A model generated the notes under the pieces. The model saw only the letters and a program-made list of their open reading frames with translations, was not told where the DNA came from and did no database searches. Shown in pieces: positions 2,872-58,227 of a stretch of DNA of 64,000 bases. Made by a program: the position numbers and the translations under genes. Source of the stretch: Candidatus Limnocylindrales bacterium (GTDB taxonomy: Bacteria > Chloroflexota > Limnocylindria > Limnocylindrales > CSP1-4); NCBI GenBank assembly GCA_038328755.1, contig JBBQMH010000001.1:18422-82421 (forward strand), in the 5' to 3' direction. Numbering within the stretch: position 1 is the first letter of the stretch; every line of letters starts with the position of its first letter.

Positions 2872-3420
2872 TCACAGCTTCGCCACGCTCGAGAACTGGT
2901 CGTTGGCGGCGCCGAGGACGCCGACCGAGGCGGTGCCCCAGTCCCACTTTGTGCCCGTCCTGTTGGGTCCGCTCCACCAGGCTGGGTGGCCGCCATTGAG
3001 CGGGGTGAACGAGCTGATTTTGTTGTCCCAGCCGATGGCGGCCAGATCCGGCTCGGCCAGGTAGGCCTCGAAGCTCGGGCCCGCGAAGTTCGTATCGCGG
3101 TACCAGCGGACGTACGGGCTCAGGAGGGCGGTGGCGGTCGGGTCGAGGGTCGCCGCTTCGATCCCTCCAGCAGCCTGGACTTCTTCCGTGGCCCGCTGCT
3201 CGGCGGTCAGGAAGCAGCGGATGACCGGGTAGTCCCGATCGTGGCAGTAGAGATCGACGATCGCGCCCGGGTCGATCCGCTGGGCCCCGAGATAGACGAC
3301 CGGGGTCACGTCCCTGGCTGGGACGGCCGAGACCGAGGCGGGCAGCCCGCCGGCGGCGAAGACGGCCAGGAGTGTCCATCCGGCGACGAGTTGCGAGCGG
3401 AGTCTCTGTCGTCCAGCCAT
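2872..3420 (-). CDS. hypothetical secreted protein (182 aa)
   Basis: Signal peptide LVAGWTLLAVFAAGGLPASVSA; GGAGG RBS 8 nt upstream; preceded by conserved leader element. Confidence 0.6.
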   Translation of the reverse strand: MAGRQRLRSQLVAGWTLLAVFAAGGLPASVSAVPARDVTPVVYLGAQRIDPGAIVDLYCHDRDYPVIRCFLTAEQRATEEVQAAGGIEAATLDPTATALLSPYVRWYRDTNFAGPSFEAYLAEPDLAAIGWDNKISSFTPLNGGHPAWWSGPNRTGTKWDWGTASVGVLGAANDQFSSVAKL

Positions 3421-3440
3421 CGGCGTGCCTCCAGGGGTCG

Positions 3441-3600
3441 TGGTCTACGGCTCGGTTGACGCCCAACCGCGCAACCAGGGACGCACCACGAGGGTCGCGG
3501 CTGGTGGGTCGGATGGCGAGAGCGTGAATCACGTCAGGCCGCGGCGTGGGATCGCGCCGAGGGCCGGCCGTCCGGGGTCGCATACCCGCTCCCGCACAGA
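3441..3600. repeat. conserved ~160-nt non-coding element, copy A (candidate cis-regulatory RNA leader)
   Basis: ~80-85% identical with indels to 4958-5130; shared blocks ACGCCCAACCGCGCAA, GGCTGGTGGGTCGGATGGCGAG, AATCACGTCAGGCCGCGGCGTGG, CGCCGAGGGCCGGCC. Confidence 0.6.
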
Positions 3601-4120
3601 GGGGTCGACGATCCGGTCTGGCGCGACGCCCTCGACGCCGGGGGCGATCGAGGGCGTACCTCGAGGCCCTTACCGAACTCGACGCCCCTGGTCCGCTCGG
3701 GGACACGCCTCGGGACGCGACCAGTACGTTCGCGAACAACCGCGAGGGGATGCGCTACTGTCGCTCCTTGGCGCTCGGCCTCTTTTTGGCGCTCGGCCTC
3801 TTTGTCGGCTCGGGCGTCGTCGAGGCCGGTCGCGCGACGCTCATCGGCGGACGCCTCAAGCAGTCCGAGATGCGCTGGACGCCGTGCGATGGGCCGAGTC
3901 GATGATCCGGCCGCCGGTGCGCGGGGCAAGAGGGGGCCGGCGAGGACGGGACCCACGCGAACCAGGGAAGCACCAGGGCTTCAAGCGACGTCTTTGGGAC
4001 GCCGGGGCCGAAGCGAGGGCGGCGCCACGGTCCCCACGCCGCCCTCCGCTTGGCCAACGAGCCGCCAGCCGAGGACCTTGACCCCGGACCATCTCGGCGA
4101 TCCAAAACGCGGATCTTGGG

Positions 4121-4222
4121 TCAGCCAGAGACGCTCCTACCAAACAGGCTAAGAACCAAGACCAAGACCAGAAGGCCCAGCAGAACGATGGCGATCCTGG
4201 GCAACCACTCCGTGGCGGTCAT
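4121..4222 (-). CDS. small hydrophobic peptide (33 aa) MTATEWLPRIAIVLLGLLVLVLVLSLFGRSVSG
   Basis: Not in ORF track (too short); ATG 2 nt after stop of upstream gene, preceded by GGAGGAGG SD; single predicted TM helix. Confidence 0.35.
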   Translation of the reverse strand: MTATEWLPRIAIVLLGLLVLVLVLSLFGRSVSG

Positions 4223-4224
4223 GT

Positions 4225-4839
4225 TCAACCTCCTCCGCTTCCGGTGCCACGACCATCAGCGTGTGCTGTCATGTCAAGCCACGGCAGATTGTCCTGATTC
4301 GAGAGGGGGTTTGGTGGGCGATAGCTGAAACTGCCTTGCACGAACGACCGGTAGTATTCGAGGCCTTGTCCTCCCCCAGTAAAGTCCCCGACGAGCCCGT
4401 TGTACGACCACCAAGGATAGTTGAGTGTCGCAGTCACCTGTCGCCAAGGAGTATTCGTGATCCTCGTCCCGTCTCCACACCAATCGATTCGCTGCTTAAA
4501 CGTCCATAGAAGGACACCAATAGGGTTCCTCCCATCACGGCCCCACGTCCAAGTCCAACATGTCACGGCAACAGCGCCCAGGAGGCTAGAGGTCGGACCC
4601 GTGACCCGAGTGACTGGCGACTGCGTGGTCGTGACTGTCGCGAGACTGGTGTAATCCAGGACAGACCGTTGTTCGGCAGGGCTGAGTCGAGCAAATGCCG
4701 CGTTTTGATCGCTAGCTCGGGCAACGACGTCCGTCAGGCGTGCAGCGTCCCGCGTAGGATTCGCGGCCGCCACTGGCCCGACCACCCCAATGGTCATCAG
4801 AACGGACACGAGGAACGTGGCAACGATCTGAATGCGCAT
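4225..4839 (-). CDS. hypothetical secreted Trp-rich protein (204 aa)
   Basis: Signal peptide MRIQIVATFLVSVLMTIGVVGPVAAA; W-rich mature region (TCWTWTWG, NYPWWSY). Confidence 0.6.
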   Translation of the reverse strand: MRIQIVATFLVSVLMTIGVVGPVAAANPTRDAARLTDVVARASDQNAAFARLSPAEQRSVLDYTSLATVTTTQSPVTRVTGPTSSLLGAVAVTCWTWTWGRDGRNPIGVLLWTFKQRIDWCGDGTRITNTPWRQVTATLNYPWWSYNGLVGDFTGGGQGLEYYRSFVQGSFSYRPPNPLSNQDNLPWLDMTAHADGRGTGSGGG

Positions 4840-4957
4840 TTCTGTCCCCAGCTTTGTTCGTGTTGCTGTTGAGGTCTTGTCCTATACCAACCGATCTTCT
4901 CGACTTGGTCTGCACCTACTCCCACTGCCCGTTCATCCAGACATCGCGGTGGCCCCA

Positions 4958-5130
4958 GGTCGTGGTTTGCGGATCCGGGTACGCCCAACCGCGCAATGAG
5001 GGACGCACCACCAAGGGTGGCGGCTGGTGGGTCGGATGGCGAGGCCGGAAATCACGTCAGGCCGCGGCGTGGAATCACGCCGAGGGCCGGCCATCTCGGG
5101 ACGGGCATCGCTCTCCGCAGAGTGGGGCGG
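4958..5130. repeat. conserved ~160-nt non-coding element, copy B
   Basis: Paralogous to 3441-3600; lies between secreted-protein gene (minus) and histidine kinase gene (plus). Confidence 0.6.
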
Positions 5131-5181
5131 CGAGGCCACCAAGTATGATCACTGCGTGTTCGCATCCAGGGGACGGTCAGG

Positions 5182-6621
5182 GTGACTTCGGCGTCGCGGG
5201 TCGGTTCGATCGGCGGGGCGCGTTCCGCATCCACCGCGTTCGTCGTCGCCCTCGCCATCGACCTCGTTGCGCTCATGGCCCTGGGCTGGCTGGTCGTGGT
5301 CGGCACCCCGGCCATCGATGTCGGTTTCGCCCCTCAGCCTGACGATCGATGGCTCGTCACATCCGTCGCTCCGGGAGGCGTCGCCTGGAACAACGGGATC
5401 CGGCCCGGCATGGAGGTCGTCGGGGTCAGTCCTGGCGACGCGCTCCCGTCGGGCGAATGGACGTCCGTGCTCGTCACCGATGGGGCGGTCCGGATCACCA
5501 TCCAGCGCCACGACCTGCCGCCCGGTCCGGAGCTGTTGGTCGCCGGCATCGTCGCCCTCGGGCTGGCGATCCTTGCCTTCCGCCCCGTACCGTCCGTGGC
5601 CTGGTGGCTTGCCCTTGCGCCAGCGATCGTCACGTCGCTCACTGGCGCACTGATCGTGGATCCGCCGCTCAATCTGGCGTTCGAGCTTGGAGGGCCCCTC
5701 ATCGGCGCGCTCTACGTGGTGGCGGCAGCTCGCCCCGTGGCGCGGAACGCGCGGTGGATCGTTCTCGGGACCGGCGCCGCGTTCCTCCTTGTCTGGGGCG
5801 TGTCGTATGTCACCGCAGGAGAGGACTGGCGCATCCTTCGCGACCTGTCGGTTGCCGTCAGCCTCGCCCTGGCCGCGGTGGCGCTGGGAGTGACCGTCCG
5901 GTCGGCGTTCGCGCGAGCTCGGGCGCGGACGGGGACGGGGACGCCACTGTCCACGCTATCGCCCGTGGCCGCGCTGGGACTCGTCGTCGACGAACTCGTC
6001 CCCGGTCGAAGCAGAACGCGGGTGACCGCCATCGAGCGCGAGCGCGCCCGCCTGGCGACCGAGCTCCACGCCGACGTCCTGCCGGACCTGTCTGCCGTGA
6101 TCCGGTCAATCGAGGAAGGTGCCTCAGGTGAACAGGCAGCCGAGAGACTGCGCGGCATCGCTGCCGAACTGCGAGACCTGATGGCCGAACGGCGGCTGAG
6201 CGTCCTGGAACAGCTCGGGCTTGTTCCCGCTCTGGAATGGCTCGTCGAGCAGGTGGAGGGGCGGACAGGCGTCCGCGTCGAGCTCGACGTGGAAGGCGCC
6301 AGCGTCGATTGGGAAGCACGGCCGCCGCGCGACGTTGAGTTGACGGCCTACCGGGTCTGCCAGCAGGCACTCGACAACGCGCTGCTGCACGCCCGGCCGA
6401 CCAGCATTCGCGTGCGGCTCGATGTGGACGCGGGTCACGCTGAGCTCGAGGTCAGCGATAACGGCGTCGGCATCCGATCCGGAGACGAGGAGCGGGCGCT
6501 CCGGTCCGGCCACCTCGGCCTGGGCGACATGCGTCAACGGGCGGCCGCGATCGGGGCCGCTCTCCACATCGGCCCGCGGCAAGACGGGGGAACGATGGTG
6601 CTGCTGCGCTGGCCGGCATGA
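5182..6621 (+). CDS. sensor histidine kinase, NarL/HisKA_3 type, multi-TM with PDZ-like extracytoplasmic segment
   Basis: TM helices; ERERARLATELHADV H-box; C-terminal HATPase (LDNALLHARP, SDNGVGI, GLGLGDM). Confidence 0.8.
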   Translation: MTSASRVGSIGGARSASTAFVVALAIDLVALMALGWLVVVGTPAIDVGFAPQPDDRWLVTSVAPGGVAWNNGIRPGMEVVGVSPGDALPSGEWTSVLVTDGAVRITIQRHDLPPGPELLVAGIVALGLAILAFRPVPSVAWWLALAPAIVTSLTGALIVDPPLNLAFELGGPLIGALYVVAAARPVARNARWIVLGTGAAFLLVWGVSYVTAGEDWRILRDLSVAVSLALAAVALGVTVRSAFARARARTGTGTPLSTLSPVAALGLVVDELVPGRSRTRVTAIERERARLATELHADVLPDLSAVIRSIEEGASGEQAAERLRGIAAELRDLMAERRLSVLEQLGLVPALEWLVEQVEGRTGVRVELDVEGASVDWEARPPRDVELTAYRVCQQALDNALLHARPTSIRVRLDVDAGHAELEVSDNGVGIRSGDEERALRSGHLGLGDMRQRAAAIGAALHIGPRQDGGTMVLLRWPA

Positions 6622-7232
6622 TCCGCGTGCTCATCGCCGACGACCATCCGTCGACCGCCATGGGCCTCGGCCAGCTGCTCGGTCGCGAGCGCGACCTCGA
6701 TGTGGTCGGCCTGGCCGAGGACGTCGAGGGTGCCCTGACGCTCGCTCGTAGCCTGGCGCCGGATCTGGTCCTCTGCGACATTCAGCTCCAGGGCGAGGCC
6801 GGCGGCTTCGAGATCCTGCGACGACTCGAGCGCGAGAACCCGCCCCCGGTGCTCCTCTTCAGCTCGTTCGACTACCCGGCCTTCCAGCAACGGGCGCTCG
6901 AGCTTGGCGCCCGCGGGTATCTCCTGAAGACGAGCAGCGTCCGAGAGATCGTGGCCGCGATTCGCCATGTCGCGGGGGGCGGCTCGGCCTTCATGGCGAT
7001 GGCATCTCGGGGCAAGGCCACCGAGCCTCGGGCGCCATCCGAGCGGGAGCTCGCGCTCATTCGACTCGTCCGGTCGGGTTTCACCAACGACGAGGCGGGG
7101 GTCCGGCTCGGGATGGGCACTCGCGGCGTGGAGAGCTCGCTCCGACGGCTGTTCCAGCGCTACGGGACCTTGAGCAGGACGGAACTCGTGACCTACGCTG
7201 AAGGGCAGGGTTGGCTCGCACTCGATCCGTAA
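6618..7232 (+). CDS. response regulator, NarL/LuxR family
   Basis: REC domain (IRVLIADDHP...LCDIQL) plus C-terminal LuxR HTH; ATGA overlap with kinase. Confidence 0.9.
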   Translation: MIRVLIADDHPSTAMGLGQLLGRERDLDVVGLAEDVEGALTLARSLAPDLVLCDIQLQGEAGGFEILRRLERENPPPVLLFSSFDYPAFQQRALELGARGYLLKTSSVREIVAAIRHVAGGGSAFMAMASRGKATEPRAPSERELALIRLVRSGFTNDEAGVRLGMGTRGVESSLRRLFQRYGTLSRTELVTYAEGQGWLALDP

Positions 7233-7240
7233 TAGCGGGA
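7232..7240 (+). promoter_or_regulatory. ATAGCGGGA direct repeat 1 (candidate response-regulator site)
   Basis: Exact 9-mer, one of three within 280 nt. Confidence 0.35.
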
Positions 7241-7481
7241 TCGACGCGTTCGCGCGGGGCGATCCGGGACGCAGCGAAGAAGGCGCGCCCGCTCAGCCAG
7301 GTGTCTGGAACCGAGGCTGCCGCCGACCCCCGCGGCCATCGGTCCCGGCGGGTGGATTCAGCTCCCGCCTTGGTCATATCGCGGTTGATCGCGGCCAGTT
7401 GATCGCCGCATGAGAAACAAGATGGTAACGGTCAAGCTGAGCGTCTGGCGGCCGCCCACTATCCCCTTGCACGCTGACCGG

Positions 7482-7513
7482 ATAGCGGGATTCCCCGCGA
7501 CGTTATAGCGGGA
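7482..7513 (+). promoter_or_regulatory. ATAGCGGGA direct repeats 2 and 3, spaced 23 nt centre-to-centre
   Basis: gATAGCGGGAtt...tATAGCGGGAaa ~105 nt upstream of the secreted-protein gene. Confidence 0.4.
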
Positions 7514-7642
7514 AATCATCGCTCGACAGGCTGGTCGCCGGGGGTCAACCTCCCAGCGAGACAACGACGCGAGACGGCCGATGCGCCTTCCGGAGCGCCG
7601 GCTGTTTCAGCTGACCTCGTGGACGACTGGAGGATTGCGGGA

Positions 7643-8062
7643 ATGCACAGGAAATACACCGGTGTTGTGGCTGGATTGCTGCTTTCGATCCTCACCGTCG
7701 GAACGGCGCTTGCGGAGGGGTCCTGGGATTCCTACATCATCAACGCGCACCGCTCCTTCGACTCCCGGACCTGGACGGACCGGGACATAGATGCCAACGC
7801 CACGACAATCAGGTTCGACACCTGCCGGGACGAGAACACGACGAACGGCAGCGATGACTGGGCGAAGGTTTCGTTGCAGAGGATGCGCTTGTTCTTGCCG
7901 GCGGAGAATCGCGGGCAGAAGACCCTCTTCTGCTGGGTGAGTGCTACCGGCGACTGGGGCCGACAACCAGCATCGGACTACCAGTTCCAGCTCGATGACT
8001 ACAGCGGTGGCACGGACAGCTGGAACGTGTTCGACGTCGGTTTCCTCAGAGTATCGTACTGA
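7643..8062 (+). CDS. small secreted protein (139 aa), hypothetical
   Basis: GGAGG RBS; signal peptide MHRKYTGVVAGLLLSILTVGTALA; lower GC. Confidence 0.6.
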   Translation: MHRKYTGVVAGLLLSILTVGTALAEGSWDSYIINAHRSFDSRTWTDRDIDANATTIRFDTCRDENTTNGSDDWAKVSLQRMRLFLPAENRGQKTLFCWVSATGDWGRQPASDYQFQLDDYSGGTDSWNVFDVGFLRVSY

Positions 8063-8069
8063 TCAGGAC

Positions 8070-8810
8070 ATGCAGCTCGCATTCGACGACGTAACGTTCC
8101 GGTACCGACGAGCCTCGCCCCCGGTATTGGACGGCTTCACCTGGGCTGTCCCGTCGGGAAGGACAGTCCTGTTGGGTCCGAACGGAGCAGGCAAGACGAC
8201 CTTGCTCGCGCTTGGAGCCGACGTGCTTCAGCCAGAACGCGGCAGGATCTCGGCCGGTCCGCTGCACCCCGTCGGCCGGACGGAGCGCGCCTCGTACCGG
8301 CGGGCGGTCGGCTGGATGCCGCAGCAGATCCGCGCCGTCCCGGGCCTGACGGCACGAGAACAGGTCGCCTACGCGGCCTGGTTGAAAGGGGCTCCGCGCG
8401 GCCGGGCATGGGAGCTGGCTGTCGGGGCATAGGCGCGGGTCGACCTCGATGGGCTGAGCGATCGCTTGACCTCAGAGCTCTCCGGCGGACAGCTTCGCCG
8501 GGTGGGTCTCGCTCAGGTGCTTGTCCACGATGCCGAGGTCATCCTCCTCGACGAGCCAACCGTCGGGCTGGATCCCGCACAGCGCGCGACGTTCCGGCAG
8601 ATCCTCGCGGCGCTCCCGGGGGACCGCCCGGTCGTCGCCTCGACGCACCAGGTCGACGATCTCTCGGAGCTCTTCGACACGGTTGTGATCCTCGATCGCG
8701 GCCGGATCCGCCACCAGAGCTCGGTCGCCGTGTTTTTCGACCTCGCGCCGTCAGGGTCTCCGCGACCCGCCGAGGCCGCGTATGCCCAGGTCGTGTCCGG
8801 GTCCGATTGA
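8070..8810 (+). pseudogene. ABC transporter ATP-binding protein interrupted by in-frame TAG at 8430-8432
   Basis: Walker A LGPNGAGKTT before the stop; LSGGQ and Walker B ILLDEPT after it in the same frame (...ELAVGA*ARVDLDGLSDRLTSELSGGQ...). Confidence 0.7.
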
Positions 8811-10701: not shown

Positions 10702-11067
10702 CTGGTGGCAACGATCACCGTTGCGTGTGGCGGCGACATCAACCGCCGCTGGTGAGATCAGCAGTGGCGAGTTTGACGGGTTGAAGCGCGCCTTGGAGCG
10801 GTAGGCCATCCACGCGACGCGCCCGATCACGCCCAGGCGGGTCCCTCGTGTGGGCGTGGTTTCAGGTTGAAGGCCATCGAGGGGAGCGTCGAGCCCACAG
10901 TGAGGCCGAACACCGCGGATAATGAGCAGGGCCACTGGCTACCTGAACCGCTCGACAGAGCGTATCTGGACCTCGCACGAGGGGTGCTCGTCCCCCGACC
11001 CAGGCGCAATCTCCGGCCGCCGGGCCCCGCGGCCCCGCCCGTGCCTTCCCGCGTACACTCCCGAGCC

Positions 11068-12879
11068 GTGACCATCCCTCAGAGCCGCCTGCGCAACTTC
11101 TCGATCATTGCCCATATCGATCATGGAAAGTCCACGCTTGCCGATCGGTTGCTCGAGGCAACGCACGCGATCGATCCCCGGCAGATGACGAGCCAGGTCC
11201 TCGACTCGATGGACCTCGAGCGCGAGAAGGGGATCACGATCAAGGCCCGCGCCGTGCGGCTCGAGTACACCGCGGCCGACGGTCTGCACTACGGGCTCAA
11301 CCTGATCGATACGCCCGGCCATGTTGACTTCAGCTATGAGGTCAGTCGCAGCCTGCAGGCGTGCGAGGGCGCGATCCTCGTCGTCGATGCCGCCCAGGGA
11401 ATCGAGGCCCAGACCCTCGCCAACGTCCACCTGGCCCTCAAGGAGGGCCTCACGATCATTCCGGTCCTCAACAAGATCGACCTGCCGTCGGCCCAGCCAG
11501 ATGTCGTGATGGACGAGCTCGAGAACATCCTGGCCATCCCACGCGAGGAGGTGATCCTCGCCTCGGCGAAAGAGGGCATCGGCATCACCGAGATCCTCGA
11601 AGCGATCGTCGCGCGCATCCCCGCCCCGAAGGGCGATCCCGCCCTCCCGCTCAAGGCGCTCGTCTTCGACTCGCACTACGACCAGTACAAGGGCGTGATC
11701 TGCTACGTCCGCCTCGCCCAGGGCACGCTCCACTCCCATGACCGCGTCCGGCTCATGCAGTCCGGTGCCGAGGCCGACCTCCTCGAACTCGGCTTCTTCC
11801 GGCCCGCGCTGGTGCCCGTTCCGATGATCCACGCCGGTGACGTCGGCTATCTCGCGACGGGACTCAAGAACGTTCGCGAGGCCCAGGTCGGTGACACGAT
11901 CACGAGTGCCGCCGATGGTGCCGCTGAGCCGCTGCCCGGCTACCAGGAGGCCAAGAGCCTCGTATTTGCCGGCATCTATCCGGTCAGCGGCGAGGACTAC
12001 CCGCTCCTCCGCGAAGCCATCGAGAAGCTGCACCTCAACGATGCGTCGTTCACCTACGAGCCCGAGAGCTCGGTTGCGCTGGGCTTCGGGTTCCGATGCG
12101 GATTCCTGGGGCTCCTCCACATGGAGATCGTCCAGGAGCGCCTGGAACGCGAGTTCAACCTCGATCTCATCGCCTCGGCGCCGTCGGTCGAGTACCAGGT
12201 CGTGATGACCCACGGCCGCGGGACGATCACCATCGACAATCCGGCCTTCCTGCCGCCCGTGTCCGAGATCGAGGAGATCCTGGAGCCGTGGGTCCTGCTG
12301 TCCGTAGTGACCCCGTCGAGCTACATCGGCCCGTTGATGGAGCTGTCCACGAACCGGCGTGGCTCGTTCATCGGGCTCGAGTACATCGACCCGGTCCGGG
12401 TGCTCATGAAGTTCGAGCTGCCGCTGGCCGAACTCATCGTCGACTACTTCGACCAGCTGAAGACCCGCACCGCCGGATACGCGTCGATGGATTACGAGGA
12501 GATCGGGTATCGGGCGGCCCACCTCGTCAAGCTCGATGTCCTCGTCGCCGGCGAGCCCGTCGACGCGCTGTCGATGATCGTCCATCGCGACAAGTCGGTC
12601 TCGCTCGGTCGCATCCTGGCCGAGCGGCTGAAGCAGCTGATCCCACGCCAGATGTTCGAGATCCCGATCCAGGCGGCGATCGGCTCGAACGTCGTTGCGC
12701 GCGAATCCGTCCGTGCCATGCGCAAGAACGTCCTCGCCAAGTGCTACGGTGGCGACATCAGCCGCAAGCGCAAGCTGCTCGAGAAACAGAAGGAGGGCAA
12801 GCGCCGTATGAAGCGCGTGGGCTCCGTCGAGATCCCCCAGGAAGCCTTCCTCGCCATGCTCCGGACAGACGAGAACTAG
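11068..12879 (+). CDS. lepA: elongation factor 4 (LepA)
   Basis: [33 protein letters not shown] and LepA C-terminal domain; GTG at 11068 gives ~603 aa, ORF-track start 10867 likely too early. Confidence 0.95.
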
Positions 12880-18135: not shown

Positions 18136-20118
18136 GTGGGAAAGATCATCGGCATCGACCTCGGCACGACGAACTCAGTCGTGGCCGTCATGGAGGGCGG
18201 CGAGCCCACCGTCATCGCCTCGGCCGAGGGAGGCCGGACCGTGCCGTCGGTCGTCGGCTTCAGCAAGACCGGCGAGCGCCTCGTCGGAGCCCTGGCCAAG
18301 CGCCAGTCCGTGACGAACCCGGCCAATACGGTCTATTCGATCAAGCGGTTCATGGGGCGCCGCTGGGATGATCCCGAGGTCAAGCACAGCATCGGGCTCG
18401 TCCCGTACACCGTCGAGAAGGACCCCAAGAGTGACGGCATCCGCGTGAAGCTCGCGGACGGCAACGCCTACTCGCCGCCGGAAATCTCGGCCATGATCCT
18501 GCAGAAGCTCAAGGCCGACGCCGAGGCCTACCTCAACGAGAAGGTCACCGAGGCGGTGATCACCGTCCCGGCCTACTTCGACGACACCCAGCGCCAGGCG
18601 ACCAAGGACGCGGGCCGCATCGCCGGCCTCGACGTCAAGCGAATCATCAACGAACCGACCGCGTCGGCCCTGGCCTACGGTCTCGACAAGAAGCACGACG
18701 AGAAGATCGCGGTCTACGACCTCGGTGGCGGCACGTTCGACATCTCCATCCTCGAGCTCGGCGATGGCGTGTTCGAGGTCAAGGCCACGAACGGCGACAC
18801 GCATCTTGGCGGAGACGACTTCGATCAGCGCGTCATCGACTGGCTGCTGGCCGAGTTCAAGAAGGACCAGGGGATCGACCTGGCCAAGGACGCCCAGGCG
18901 CTCCAGCGCCTCAAGGAGGCCGCTGAGAAGGCCAAGATCGAGCTCAGCTCGACGATGTCCACGGAGATCAACCTCCCGTACGTCACCGCCGATGCCACCG
19001 GGCCGAAGCACCTCGTGATCAACCTCTCGAGGGCAAAGCTGCAGGACCTCGTCGGCGACCTGATCGACAAGACCAAGGGCCCCGTCCTCGCGGCGCTCAA
19101 AGATGCTGGCCTCAAGCCGGCCGACATCGACGAGGTGATCCTAGTCGGTGGCATGACCCGCATGCCGGCCGTCCAGGAGCTGGTCAAGAGCCTGTTCGGG
19201 AAGGAGCCGCACCGCGGCGTGAATCCGGACGAGGTGGTCGCCGTCGGGGCTGCCATCCAGGCCGGCGTGCTCGGCGGCGAGGTCAAGGACGTCCTGCTCC
19301 TCGACGTCACGCCGCTGTCGCTCGGCATCGAGACGCTCGGTGGCGTCATGACCCGGCTCATCGATCGCAACACCACCATCCCGACCTCGAAGTCGCAGAC
19401 GTTCTCCACGGCTTCGGACAACCAGAACCAGGTCGAGATCCACGTCCTCCAGGGCGAGCGCGACTTCGCGGCCGATAACAAGACCCTCGGACGCTTCATC
19501 CTCGATGGCATCCCTCCGGCCCCGCGGGGAATCCCGCAGGTCGAGGTGACGTTCGATATCGACGCGAACGGCATCCTCGACGTCAAGGCCAAGGACCGCG
19601 CGACCAGCAAGGAGCAGCAGGTCCGTATCACCGCTTCGTCGATGCTGGACAAGTCGGCCGTGGACCAGATGGTCCGCGATGCGCAGGAGCATGCCGAGGA
19701 AGACCGCACGCGACGCGAAGAGGTCGAGACCCGGAACCAGGCCGAGCAGCTCACCTACCAGGCCGAGAAGACCCTCAAGGACCTTGGCGACAAGGTCTCG
19801 CCCGAAGACCGTGCGGAGGTCGAGACCAAGGTCGCGAGCCTGCGCGAGTCGCTCAAGGGAGACGACCTCGCCGTCGTCAAGTCCGGCGCCGAGACCCTGG
19901 CCGAGTCGTTGAGTCGAGTTGGTGCGGCCGCGTACCAGGCGGCGTCGGCGGCCGGTGACGGTGACGCGGGTGGCTTCAACCCGAACGGCGGCGACGCCTT
20001 CACCGGTGGCGAGGGTTCCGGCGACGCGTCCGGGGCCGATGGCGCCGGTGCTGGCGACGGAGCCGGGAGTGGCGACACTGACGGCGAAACGGTCGAGGGC
20101 GAGTTCAAGGAGGTCTAG
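18136..20118 (+). CDS. dnaK: chaperone DnaK (Hsp70)
   Basis: [33 protein letters not shown]. Confidence 0.97.
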
Positions 20119-20129
20119 ACCTCGAGCCC

Positions 20130-20300
20130 TTGCGCGGGCGCGGAGTCCGCGGACGCCCGGTTCAGCATGTGCGGGCGCGCCGGGCTCATGGGCGGGCGCG
20201 CCGGGCCGCCGCGGGACGCCGGGCTCATGTGCGGGCGCGCCGGGCTCATGGGCGGGCGCGGGGCTCATGCGCGGGCGCCGCATCGAGCAGGGTCGGCGCT
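20130..20300. repeat. GC-rich tandem repeat array (~5 units of ~20-21 nt, GCGGGCGCGCCGGGCTCATGG-like)
   Basis: Degenerate contiguous units, no spacers. Confidence 0.7.
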
Positions 20301-21180: not shown

Positions 21181-21300
21181 TACTCACCTCGCGGTTATGG
21201 GGAAGTTCGCGGACCCGCGCCCCGCGCCCCGCGGACCCGCGCCCCGCGCCCCGCGGACCCGCGCCCCCGCGCCCCGCGGACCCGCGCCCCGCGCCACCAG
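21181..21300. repeat. GC-rich tandem repeat array (~4 units of ~22 nt, GACCCGCGCCCCGCGCCCCGCG-like)
   Basis: Roughly reverse-complement in character to the 20130-20300 array, so the two bracket the regulator gene. Confidence 0.7.
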
Positions 21301-33540: not shown

Positions 33541-35832
33541 GTGCTGGCTCATCGCGGAACCGACGCCGTCCGCCTGACCCGCCGCGAGGCTGGCCGGCTG
33601 GCGATCGCAGCCATTGCCCTGATCGTGGCAATGACGGCGATCCTCGGCGCCGATTTTTCGCCCAAGCGAGTCGACCTGCAGGTGGGGGACCTCGTCCCGG
33701 CCGATATCGTCGCCCCGCGCGCCCTGACCTACGAGAACACTGTTCTGACCGAGCAGGCTCGCCAGGCGGCGATCGACAGCGTCCCGCCCCAGTACGACTT
33801 TACGACTGAACGTGCGATCACGATCGCATCCGTTCAGGCCCAGACGTTCGCTGACAAGGTCAACCCGCTCGACGCGGCATTCGACCCCTCGACACCCGCC
33901 GTCGACCGCAGCGCCACCATCGAGGGATTCGCCGTGGCACTCTCTCCTGGTTCGGCGAATGCCCTTCGATCGCTCGATCTCGTGCGCTGGATCCCCATCC
34001 GGACCGAGGCGGCACGGGTGCTCGACAGCACGGAGCGCAGCGAGCTCAGGGATACCGAGGTTGCCGTCACGCAGTCGAGGCTGTCCGAACAGATGGCGGG
34101 TGGCCTGTCGGAGGCGGAGCGCATGCTCGCTGCGGAGCTGATCGCGCCACTCATCGTCCCGAACAGTTCCTTCAGTGCGGAACTGACTCAGCAGGAGCAG
34201 GACCGCCGCGCGGCAGAGGTTTCGCCCGTAACCGAGTCGTACCTGCCGCGCGAAATCCTCGTCCGCGGCGGAACCAAGTTGACGATTTCGGACGCCGCCG
34301 TCCTGGCCGCCTTCGGACTCGACAATGCCACGACCGATTTCGCCCAGCTGGCTGGCTGGTTCGTGCTGAGTGCCCTCCTGGTCGCGCTCCTGCTCGGCTG
34401 GATCTGGCGCTTCCGCCGGAGCTTCTGGCACCGCACCAACGTCCTGCTCCTGATCGGACTGCTGCTCCTGTTTGCGACGTTTGCGCTGCAGCTCACGGCG
34501 GGCCGGGCCGCACTGCCGTTTGTTCTCCCGCTGGCGGCCATTCCAGTGCTTGTCGCCGTCCTCCTCGACGCGGAGGTGGCAATCGTCCTGGCGGCGCTGG
34601 TCGCCGTCGTCGCCGGCGCCGTGAACGGTCCGTCCCTCGAGCTCGCGGCGTACGTTTTTCTGGGCGGCCTGGCGGGTGTGCTCGGCGTCCGGCGCGGGGA
34701 TCGCCTCCAGACGTTCCTGCAGGCCGGTGCCGTGGCATTCGTGGTCCAGGCGCTCGTCGTCACGGCCTTCTCGCTGCTCGGTGAACGGGACGTGACCGGG
34801 ACCGTCCAGCTGGTCGCTGCAGCTGGCATCAGTGCCGGTGGCGCGGCGGTCGTGGCGGTCGGGACGTTCGCGGTCCTGGGCAACGTCTTCGGGATCCTGA
34901 CGGTCTTCCAGCTCCTCGAACTGGCGAATCCGTCCCAGCCACTCCTTCGCCGACTGCTGATCGAGACGCCTGGCACGTATCACCACTCGCTGATGGTCGG
35001 GAACCTCGCCGAGCGCGCGGCAGAGGCGGTCGGCGCTGATCCGCTGCTGACCCGCGTCGCGGCCTACTACCACGACCTCGGGAAGCTCAACAACCCCGCT
35101 GGCTTCATCGAGAACCAGGCCGGCGGAGAGAACCTCCATGATCAGTTGACACCCGAGGAGTCGTCCCAGGTGCTGAAGGCGCACGTCGCGGATGGCATCA
35201 ACATCGCCTACGAGGGCCGCCTGCCAAAGGCGCTCATCGCGTTCATCCCACAGCACCACGGGACCGCTTCGATCAGCTACTTCTATGCCAAGGCTCGAGA
35301 GGAAGCCGCAGCGCCGTACGGCGGAGTGGAGACCGAAACCGGGGGAAAGGCGGCCGATACCGTCGATATCCGGAAGTACCGACACTCGGGACCGAAGCCG
35401 CAGTCCCGCGAGGCGGCGATCATCATGCTGGCCGATGGGGTCGAGGCGTCCGTGCGATCGCTGTCATCGCGCGACGAGGTCGCGATCCGCGGCATGGTTT
35501 CCCGGATCATCGCCGACCGGATGTCCGACGGGCAGTTCGACGAATGCGACCTGACGTTCCGCGACCTGGATCGGGTTCAGGAGGCCTTTGTCCAGCAACT
35601 CCTCGGCATGTACCACCAGCGGGTCGCCTACCCACAGAGCAAGGTGGTGGAGCAGGAGGCGCGGCGCGCTGCTGCCGCCGCGGCCGGTATCGACGGCACC
35701 GCCGCGGCGAAGGCGGGCGACGGCACCGCCGCGGCGAAGGCCGGCGAAGGCGACCCCGCGGCGAAGGCGGGCGAAGGCGACCCCGTCGCGAAGGCGGGCG
35801 AAGGCGACCCCGCGGCCCAGGGCAAAGGGTGA
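33541..35832 (+). CDS. pgpH: 7TM receptor HD phosphohydrolase (PgpH-like c-di-AMP phosphodiesterase)
   Basis: N-terminal extracytoplasmic domain, 7 TM, HD domain (YHHSLMVGNLAERAAE, YYHDLGK); C-terminal (AKAGEGDP)n repeats. Confidence 0.9.
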   Translation: MLAHRGTDAVRLTRREAGRLAIAAIALIVAMTAILGADFSPKRVDLQVGDLVPADIVAPRALTYENTVLTEQARQAAIDSVPPQYDFTTERAITIASVQAQTFADKVNPLDAAFDPSTPAVDRSATIEGFAVALSPGSANALRSLDLVRWIPIRTEAARVLDSTERSELRDTEVAVTQSRLSEQMAGGLSEAERMLAAELIAPLIVPNSSFSAELTQQEQDRRAAEVSPVTESYLPREILVRGGTKLTISDAAVLAAFGLDNATTDFAQLAGWFVLSALLVALLLGWIWRFRRSFWHRTNVLLLIGLLLLFATFALQLTAGRAALPFVLPLAAIPVLVAVLLDAEVAIVLAALVAVVAGAVNGPSLELAAYVFLGGLAGVLGVRRGDRLQTFLQAGAVAFVVQALVVTAFSLLGERDVTGTVQLVAAAGISAGGAAVVAVGTFAVLGNVFGILTVFQLLELANPSQPLLRRLLIETPGTYHHSLMVGNLAERAAEAVGADPLLTRVAAYYHDLGKLNNPAGFIENQAGGENLHDQLTPEESSQVLKAHVADGINIAYEGRLPKALIAFIPQHHGTASISYFYAKAREEAAAPYGGVETETGGKAADTVDIRKYRHSGPKPQSREAAIIMLADGVEASVRSLSSRDEVAIRGMVSRIIADRMSDGQFDECDLTFRDLDRVQEAFVQQLLGMYHQRVAYPQSKVVEQEARRAAAAAAGIDGTAAAKAGDGTAAAKAGEGDPAAKAGEGDPVAKAGEGDPAAQGKG

Positions 35833-57937: not shown

Positions 57938-58227
57938 GGGGGGCGCTTATCGGGCACTCACTCGACTACGGGCGCCCGGTGGTACGCTTCGATCGACCGC
58001 AATTTGCGGTTCGCCGAACAGTCGCGAAGCCGGTGTGATTCCGGCACAGTCCCGCTACGGTGATCGTCGCTCAGGCGACGTAAGTCCGGTCGCCGACGCT
58101 CGGTGGATGCACGACCTTCGAGAGAAAGGGTGGCTCCACACATGATCCCGACCGACTGACCGGCGGCGCGTCCCCACGACCCGCGAACCCTGCGTTCGCC
58201 CACCCCCCCGGTCGGAGACCCGCTCCC

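Follow-up and report, generated by a model that had tools for sequence, protein, structure and literature searches.

Whether a short exact repeat ahead of an operon marks the operator of a neighbouring regulator is the question raised by one locus in a 64,000-nucleotide stretch of contig JBBQMH010000001.1 from a Candidatus Limnocylindrales bacterium, which is hereafter termed the window. In this locus the genes of a sensor histidine kinase and of a NarL/LuxR(GerE)-family response regulator are followed by a non-coding gap of 410 nucleotides (nt) and then by an operon encoding a small secreted protein, an ATP-binding cassette (ABC) ATPase, a DUF7224 membrane protein and a protein of 217 amino acids (aa), and the 9-mer ATAGCGGGA stands three times between the regulator gene and the operon. 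It can tentatively be presumed that these 9-mers serve as half-sites in an operator array peculiar to this lineage, with the adjacent NarL/LuxR-type regulator as the likeliest binder; the binding itself, the protein partner and the direction in which the operon is regulated are inferred, and we lean towards this reading while stopping short of calling it probable.

A rare 9-mer clustered in one intergenic gap

Systematic search of both strands of the window located exact copies of ATAGCGGGA only at 7232, 7482 and 7505, all on the forward strand, precisely where the initial annotation had placed them (Table 1), and no further exact copy was found elsewhere on either strand of the 64 kb. Three copies stand against 0.19 expected, and none of 100 shuffles reached that number. 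An assembly artefact was rejected on the ground that the same three copies are present in Logan assembly L001, whose run (SRR19962012) is possibly the source of the window's own assembly. Triple clusters as such are not exceptional, since for any 9-mer occurring three times within 300 nt the number of clusters expected per 64 kb is 1.19 when simulated with a Markov-2 model and 1.28 when calculated analytically, and several clusters of this kind do occur in the window, being made of G+C-only words or of coding tandem repeats. Most of them are due to G+C-rich tandem repeats of short period (~21-27 nt), which were observed downstream of dnaK and elsewhere (20134-20242, 21208-21290 and 35675-35810). 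ATAGCGGGA, with a word probability of 5.6e-7 per position, is a word of another sort: triple clusters of words as improbable or rarer are expected 6e-6 times per window, and because this expectation is already corrected for the choice of word, a chance origin is ruled out and the cluster can be regarded as real and non-random.

The likeness of the copies is confined to their core. Copies 1 and 2 have 10 nt in common and flank 240 nt; the sequences following copies 2 and 3 agree at only 3 of 14 positions, a repeat search lengthens the pairs of copies by 1-4 nt at most, and Tandem Repeats Finder reported no tandem repeat at the copies. Tandem or segmental duplication was rejected for these reasons, and the sharing of a core alone fits selection on a short site better than a simple duplication. 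A fourth copy with one mismatch precedes the start codon of the secreted-protein gene, and the relaxed pattern AT.GCGGGA[AT] has four forward-strand matches, all of them in the gap at 7233-7642, along with a single match on the opposite strand elsewhere in the window.

The geometry around copies 2 and 3 resembles that of a dimer site followed by a further half-site. The gap contains a single perfect 5-N(2-4)-5 palindrome, GCGGG-ATTC-CCCGC, whose left arm falls within copy 2. This copy also opens a 9-2-9 pseudo-palindrome at 7482-7501, the right half of which, read backwards, is GTCGCGGGG and matches the 9-mer at 6 of 9 positions (p ~0.03, estimated with several spacers permitted). Copy 3 begins 3 nt beyond the pseudo-palindrome, giving the 23-nt period. 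The spacing of 23 nt between the last two copies was correctly reported in the initial annotation; its equation with two helical turns is loose, the distance being 2.2 turns and the sites only roughly in phase. Similarly, the reported distance of ~105 nt to the start codon applies to GTG 7619 (106 nt from the end of copy 3) and becomes 130 nt for ATG 7643, which is the likelier start as GGAGGA lies 7 nt upstream of it. A related palindrome, GGCGTG-GAAT-CACGCC, lies upstream of the kinase gene and matches the copy-2 palindrome except for a single symmetric change of base pair. Palindrome matches with up to two mismatches number 5 in 64 kb against 3.0 expected, and it is by position and symmetry only that this palindrome can be put forward, weakly, as a further site of the NarL/LuxR-type regulator.

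With reference to what is usually asked of an operator, the copies stand in a non-coding control region between the regulator gene and the operon, their spacing fits dimers (a 6/9 match in the 9-2-9 site, the 5-4-5 palindrome, and copy 3 at 23 nt) and they are over-represented relative to chance; conservation at orthologous targets or at other promoters was found neither in related loci nor in the 64 kb. If the copies are indeed half-sites, the phosphorylated regulator would dimerise on the 9-2-9 pseudo-palindrome, including GCGGG-ATTC-CCCGC, and a second dimer, or one more 'reading head' of a tetramer, would engage copy 3 a dimer length downstream in a LiaR-like manner. Such binding would control transcription into the secreted-protein/ABC/DUF7224 operon, and copy 1 together with the near-copy before the ATG could serve as auxiliary or low-occupancy sites.

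The two-component system and the operator of related loci

Related loci (L003-L011, L033-L035 and L039), whose contexts were found by way of the secreted protein, were compared with the window to place the repeat in its family setting. The operon of secreted protein, ABC ATPase, DUF7224 protein and a ~200-aa protein is kept in them, and a pair of kinase and NarL-type regulator is linked to it in variable arrangements, namely upstream with three genes between (L003), divergent from the operon (L006) or downstream on the opposite strand (L007); L039 has a truncated regulator gene (160 aa) directly upstream of the operon and no kinase gene. This linkage of the operon to kinase-regulator pairs or to a regulator gene, together with the position of the copies in the intergenic gap between a Response_reg and GerE gene and that same operon, speaks for an operator.

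The resemblance of the window to L003 is sharply divided. On the right side the secreted protein (82% identity), the ABC ATPase (80-85%), the DUF7224 protein (73%) and the 217-aa protein (66%) together span 66-85%; on the left side the kinase (31-33%), the regulator (38-39%) and the 182-aa gene product compared with its 170-aa-type counterpart (29%) span 29-39%. Since these identities are discordant, different histories can be ascribed to the operon and to what lies left of it, and the junction between the two falls within the repeat-bearing gap. Among themselves, the regulators of L003, L006 and L007 show 47-54% identity, though their secreted proteins share only 51-72%, and the window regulator is 37-39% identical to the regulators linked to orthologous operons. 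It has more than 45 protein clusters at 62-78% identity and so is no fast-evolving orphan. Its recognition helix is GTRGVESSLRRLF, that of the relatives SRKTVEAYLSRLF; in six homologues read at 69-78% identity the helix is GTRGVESSLRR (P0017 at 78%, P0018 at 72%, and P0021 and P0023 at 69%, the latter two on NCBI contigs of 209 and 553 kb) or SARGVESAIRR (P0032 and P0037, both 69%). Judged by these comparisons, the two-component system of the window is not an orthologue of the relatives' system and is assigned to a separate, well-populated family with another recognition helix. The source names of the regulator homologues (Anaerolinea sp., Candidatus Limnocylindrales, Chloroflexota) weakly suggest a Chloroflexota origin of this family, and the nearest solved structures are DesR, VraR, ChrA, NarL and DevR. 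In alignment A1 the conserved aspartate of its receiver domain is D54. The kinase is 30-33% identical to those of L003, L006 and L007 with its N-terminal sensor residues conserved, and has weak NCBIfam matches to NarX/NarQ/MadS/LiaS-type kinases, all below cut-off.

The relatives possess a recognisable promoter block, in which a palindrome lies directly 5' of a -35-like TTGnCn and a -10-like nAGGCT follows ~18 nt on; the promoter of L033 is near-consensus (TTGACA-N18-TAGGCT). The palindrome reads TAGGG-TTCT-CCCTA in L039 and L010, TAGGC-ATTC-GCCTA in L034, TGGGGA-TC-TCCCCA in L006 and GGGT-TCT-ACCC in L003. It begins 80-93 nt ahead of the start codon in L010, L034, L004, L006 and L003, as against 128 nt in L007. 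At the same place, L033 (89 nt) and L009 (101 nt) have a TTGAC -35 with no clear palindrome. A weight matrix of this operator, whose form is (C/A)(A/T)AGGGTTCTCCCTAC, detected it again at additional promoters in these loci: at 4377(+), 3780(-) and 1822(-) in L039, at 5277 in the divergent gap between the kinase and 170-aa genes of L006, at 187 upstream of the 168-aa gene of L004, and at 3571 upstream of the peroxidase gene of L007. These copies look like a small regulon of the L003-type regulator, and putative operators of 5-4-5 shape appear to be the norm for the relatives' module. Since recurrence at several promoters is the signature of a regulator's operator, the general idea put forward for this locus in the initial annotation is validated by the relatives.

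The window itself does not contain the relatives' operator (the TAGGGTTCTCCCTA type): an nhmmer profile gave no match at 7480-7560, and the top weight-matrix scores in the window equal background and are located elsewhere. Two likenesses noticed by eye were rejected as unsupported by the same profile and matrix, the first being that of GCGGGATTCCCCGC to TAGGGTTCTCCCTA, which would have made 7480-7540 a homologue of the relatives' promoter, and the second that of TTATAG-N18-CAGGCT, a weak sequence and the sole promoter-like one seen in the gap, to TTGACA-N18-TAGGCT of the relatives. Nearer the operon, alignment does identify the positional counterpart of the relatives' operator and -35 in degenerate form (Table 1), where TGGTCGCCGGGGGTCAACCTCCCAG of the window is matched with TGGTCGCATAGGGTTCTCCCTAC of L039 and the TTG is lost. 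The preceding ~300 nt (7233-7530), which carry the three copies, have no counterpart in ~12 related loci by alignment and no copy elsewhere in the window or the related loci by blastn; L039 has only ~35 nt between the regulator stop and TGGTCGC. The start of the secreted-protein gene (7625-7660) is remodelled as well, from (C/G)AC ATG ARR AAA TAC in the relatives to ATG CAC AGG AAA TAC in the window, so that the start codon is shifted upstream (139 vs 138 aa) and the fourth copy immediately precedes the new ATG.

The recognition helix (GTRGVESSLRRLF vs SRKTVEAYLSRLF) and the palindrome arms (GCGGG vs TAGGG) thus appear to change together with the 5-4-5 build retained, a correspondence which favours the operator reading. 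The array may then have replaced the relatives' operator (TAGGG-TTCT-CCCTA beside the -35) when a two-component system of another family came to adjoin the operon. A complete scenario of regulatory rewiring, in which a system of another family, probably from Chloroflexota, replaced the native one, the native operator and -35 decayed, and a new 9-mer array matching the newcomer's helix arose or came in at the ~300-nt junction, is, taken as a whole, unlikely. In kind, the feature would be an ordinary putative response-regulator operator, and it is no member of the operator family of the orthologous operons.

Competing explanations of the repeat

Several observations weigh against an operator read by the adjacent regulator. 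Matches to ATAGCGGGA with one or two mismatches are at chance level over the 64 kb and form no second locus, and additional sites resembling the 9-mer ahead of the kinase gene or within a duplicated 200-nt element were discarded as being at that level. The 9-mer is absent upstream of the window's kinase-regulator genes, which leaves the autoregulation that had been proposed unsupported. ATAGCGGGA is likewise found in none of the operon upstream regions of the related loci, including the closest, L010 and L039 (89% and 85% protein identity), and L039 has two-mismatch matches at chance level only, a test which is only partly fair as the related loci carry a different regulator family. The proposed NarL/LuxR-type arrangement fits the geometry, with copy 2 in a perfect 14-bp palindrome and copy 3 a dimer length on, and gains no support from recurrence, the motif being in no homologous upstream region. 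The search for pairs spaced by 23 nt in other genomes did not help it either: in 185,579 species genomes, a collection that does not include the source genome, there are 21 occurrences of ATAGCGGGA-N14-ATAGCGGGA against ~17 expected by our own arithmetic (596 Gb x 2 strands x 4^-18), which is about chance, and the matches belong to scattered phyla, with approximately nine being 23-nt tandem repeats and none lying in a similar context. Typical regulator sites vary more than the three identical 9-mers do; copy 1, besides, stands 250 nt apart from copies 2 and 3, and the best inverted partner of copy 3 (4/9, 3-nt spacer) is unconvincing. The copy-2 palindrome is not significant alone, because 5-4-5 palindromes occur 2.2 times per kb in the window; its 15-mer GCGGGATTCCCCGCG is met again on the opposite strand at 19523-19537, in dnaK codons for APRGIPQ, and this second palindrome (19524-19537) was dismissed as a coincidence within coding sequence. 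The idea of a target promoter ahead of the operon draws support from the two-component linkage and the palindromic operator that recur in the relatives, and is weakened by a promoter scan that found no sigma-70-like promoter in the gap. Cognate regulation is an assumption because the two-component system is non-orthologous, and the adjacency could be accidental. Finally, the ATPase gene carries a nonsense codon, which means that the locus may be decaying: TAG replaces the TTG (Leu) of L003 and L039 and is also present in the Logan contig, in a gene otherwise intact with Walker A, LSGGQ and Walker B, and is either a nonsense mutation of recent date, a variant within the population or an error in the reads.

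The main rival reading is a neutral by-product, in which the gap stems from the rearrangement that placed a foreign two-component system beside the operon, and the repeats, with no function at all, from processes of DNA repair or replication such as use of microhomology, template switching or small templated insertions. The region is unique to this lineage and lies exactly between DNA of discordant ancestry (29-39% vs 66-85% identity to L003), and the perfect identity of three copies is as for recent copying rather than for old, drifting sites. The 10 nt shared by copies 1 and 2 around 240 nt and the remodelled start-codon region that holds the fourth copy point the same way; the degenerate ancestral operator and -35, together with the fresh nonsense codon in the ATPase gene, imply that selection may be relaxed, and neither conservation in the related loci nor a regulon signal in the 64 kb or the species genomes was found. 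Such an origin does not predict that copy 2 should lie within a palindrome, nor that copy 3 should follow it at the length of a dimer. A microhomology junction, moreover, leaves one copy and not three or four in one orientation, and the unrelated flanks of the copies, with no tandem or extended duplication, are also at odds with it. The 240 nt between copies 1 and 2 match nothing and have no terminal inverted repeats or other copies, which argues against a transposon and led to the rejection of a miniature inverted-repeat transposable element or insertion sequence with copies 1 and 2 as a 10-bp target-site duplication. A neutral origin is therefore a possibility to be reckoned with, albeit on the unlikely side.

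An element acting at the level of RNA was also weighed, either as a hairpin with alternative pairings or as repeated (A/U)U(A/U)GCGGGA(A/U) sites for an RNA-binding translational regulator, the last of them over the space between Shine-Dalgarno and AUG. CsrA-type regulators bind several GGA sites with the last over the ribosome-binding site, and in the window all four copies are on the sense strand, each contains GGA, and the fourth lies between Shine-Dalgarno and AUG. The segment 7476-7530, within which the local hairpin at 7484-7524 falls, folds with -20.3 kcal/mol (z -2.16; 4 of 200 shuffles as good), and CCCGC at 7494-7498 could pair with GCGGG of copy 2 in place of that of copy 3. Such hairpin potential arises automatically from tandem pseudo-palindromic DNA sites, and the GGA of copy 2 is in the stem, not the loop, of the predicted fold. 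Larger contexts fold about as well as their shuffles (z -0.02 for the whole gap, -1.29 for a 201-nt version), for which a global RNA structure of the gap was rejected. An intrinsic terminator or attenuator was excluded since the hairpin is followed by CGACAGGC and not by a U-tract and none is predicted in the gap; a known structured RNA family was excluded since Rfam gave no match in the gap at gathering threshold and none at E<=1 over 3300-7700. The region occurs in no relative and hence offers no covariation. An RNA-level function thus appears quite improbable.

Binding by a different protein, be it another transcription factor or a recombinase recognising arm-type sites, is highly improbable: the non-orthology of the adjacent system, whereby adjacency is no proof of cognate control, and the lack of a 9-mer ahead of the kinase-regulator genes would permit it, but tblastn with the related loci's regulators finds no other such regulator in the window, the scanned 204-aa and 335-aa open reading frames upstream of the kinase gene have no Pfam match, and the palindrome-plus-half-site geometry fits NarL-type proteins. 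The 182-aa gene upstream of the kinase has the ~170-aa proteins of the related loci as its only known relatives.

Further candidates were set aside on simple grounds. No gene is called in the gap, whether of the window or of L001, and an open reading frame of 32 aa at 7410-7508, which stops at the TAG of copy 3, lacks both a Shine-Dalgarno sequence and a gene call and gives only a weak signal of third-codon-position G+C. A pseudogene remnant was rejected as tblastn with the neighbouring proteins of related loci gave no match in 7233-7642, and DnaA boxes, integron core sites and extracytoplasmic-function (ECF) or sigma-54 promoters as none fits when judged by eye.

Gene neighbourhood and comparison with known systems

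The coordinates of the repeat copies and of their surroundings are compiled in Table 1. The gene calls of the initial annotation (response regulator, secreted protein, ABC genes) are borne out by Pfam matches and by a signal peptide. The secreted protein belongs to a rare family, with 10 clusters among 5.8 billion proteins and no Pfam or NCBIfam model; a metagenome scan with this protein returned no new relatives, and a viral-contig scan with the regulator family no match.

Table 1 Features of the window around the repeat, in window coordinates
Feature	Position	Strand	Remarks
9-mer copy 1, ATAGCGGGA	7232-7240	+	Starts on last base of regulator TAA stop; its TAG is a second in-frame stop
9-mer copy 2, ATAGCGGGA	7482-7490	+	Exact match
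9-mer copy 3, ATAGCGGGA	7505-7513	+	23 nt after copy 2, start to start
Fourth copy, one mismatch, ATTGCGGGA	7634-7642	+	Between Shine-Dalgarno GGAGGA (7630-7635) and ATG 7643
Perfect 5-4-5 palindrome GCGGG-ATTC-CCCGC	7485-7498		Left arm within copy 2
Potential hairpin	7484-7524	+	AGCGGGAUU pairs with AAUCAUCGCU; CCCGC pairs with GCGGG of copy 3
Degenerate positional homologue of relatives' operator and -35	7531-7560	+	Alignment A3; window TGGTCGCCGGGGGTCAACCTCCCAGcgagac, L039 TGGTCGCATAGGGTTCTCCCTAcTTGTGG
Perfect 6-4-6 palindrome GGCGTG-GAAT-CACGCC	5066-5081		~100 nt upstream of kinase gene
Non-coding gap, 410 nt	7233-7642		Between regulator gene and operon
Lineage-specific non-coding DNA, ~300 nt, with copies 1-3	7233-7530		Alignments, blastn, tblastn
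Sensor histidine kinase gene, 479 aa	5182-6621	+	Pfam HATPase_c; stop overlaps regulator start codon
NarL/LuxR(GerE)-family response regulator gene, 204 aa	6618-7232	+	Pfam Response_reg and GerE
Small secreted protein gene, 139 aa	7643-8062	+	N-terminus MHRKYTGVVAGLLLSILTVGTALA|EG; signal peptide judged by eye
ABC transporter ATPase gene	8070-8810	+	Pfam ABC_tran; one in-frame TAG at 8430-8432
DUF7224 membrane protein gene, 424 aa	8810-10084	+	Pfam PF23866; 73-75% identical to L003 and L039
Last gene of conserved operon, 217 aa	10048-10701	+	No family; 66% identical to L003
lepA	10867-12879		Position after operon

Other features were observed in passing. Within the gap, a direct repeat GTTGATCGCGGC/GTTGATCGCCGC, 14 nt apart at 7384-7409, lies in the least G+C-rich part (~53% over 7350-7440) and could be another protein site or a promoter element. 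A non-coding element of ~200 nt is duplicated in direct orientation at 3409-3604 and 4933-5127 (81% identity, E 2e-47). The end of one copy is 55 nt from the kinase start; the other sets in where the minus-strand 182-aa gene has its start codon, and after it come ~500 nt without a called gene (3605-4120). The element contains the palindrome GGCGTG-GAAT-CACGCC, has no Rfam match at E<=1 and was not found in the related loci. Farther off, a cobalamin riboswitch (RF00174) lies at 57980-58115 on the forward strand with 34.3 bits against a gathering score of 31.5. DnaK (18136-20118) is offset by ~26 residues relative to two DnaK chains in PDB alignments, which we take to be those of Mycobacterium and Geobacillus; the offset is presumably the insert typical of diderm-type Hsp70, and as such argues against an actinobacterial origin despite 68% G+C.

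If the 9-mers are true half-sites, they would provide the first recognition sequence for a populous, uncharacterised NarL-type family, a handle on an unstudied envelope module of small secreted protein, ABC ATPase and DUF7224 membrane protein, and a natural example of a regulator and its site exchanged together while the operon stayed the same. Sites resembling ATAGCGGGA or GCGKGGAATCMCGC would then be expected near the kinase-regulator genes or neighbouring operons of the regulators that are 62-78% identical. Should the repeats be neutral debris, they would have no wider importance, and the kind of feature is well known either way.

Among known systems, one comparison is with the putative operator of the related loci (L039, L010, L003, L004, L006, L034 and L007), which belongs to the same operon, is associated with a NarL-type regulator, recurs at several promoters of its module and is likewise a 5-4-5 palindrome whose arms are G-rich and whose centre is T/C-rich. 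It differs in having TAGGG arms where the window has GCGGG, and in its distance from the start codon (~85 nt vs ~150 nt in the window, where no TTG -35 follows); the window regulator is, besides, of another family.

Another comparison is with the operators of LiaR, VraR and DesR, in which a palindromic primary site is joined by a secondary one and a dimer of dimers binds the two; LiaR is related to VraR and DesR, which are among the nearest solved relatives of the window regulator. A LiaR dimer site measures ~21 nt, the activated tetramer protects 43-44 nt, and at one promoter only three of the four DNA-reading heads engage (PMC4482077). The window presents a comparable ~20-bp palindromic site at 7482-7501 and then a half-site at 23 nt, spanning ~45 nt in total. 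In sequence it bears no relation to the LiaR consensus T(N4)C(N4)G(N4)A, and its putative half-sites are three identical 9-mers in direct orientation, with one copy 250 nt off at a stop codon and a near-copy between Shine-Dalgarno and ATG. For these putative sites, moreover, the promoter scan located no promoter in the gap.

The DosR/DevR box of mycobacteria is a palindrome built on GGGAC...GTCCC, and it resembles the window site as the target of a NarL-family regulator on GGG-containing inverted half-sites, DevR being another of the solved relatives; sequence and spacing differ, and membership is not claimed. In the BceRS-BceAB system, a kinase-regulator pair stands beside an ABC operon and controls it via intervening promoter sites, an architecture mirrored by the window, in which a kinase-regulator pair adjoins an ABC operon under its putative control. 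Bce regulators are of OmpR type and the permease of FtsX type, whereas the window has a NarL-type regulator, a DUF7224 membrane partner and a small secreted protein leading the operon.

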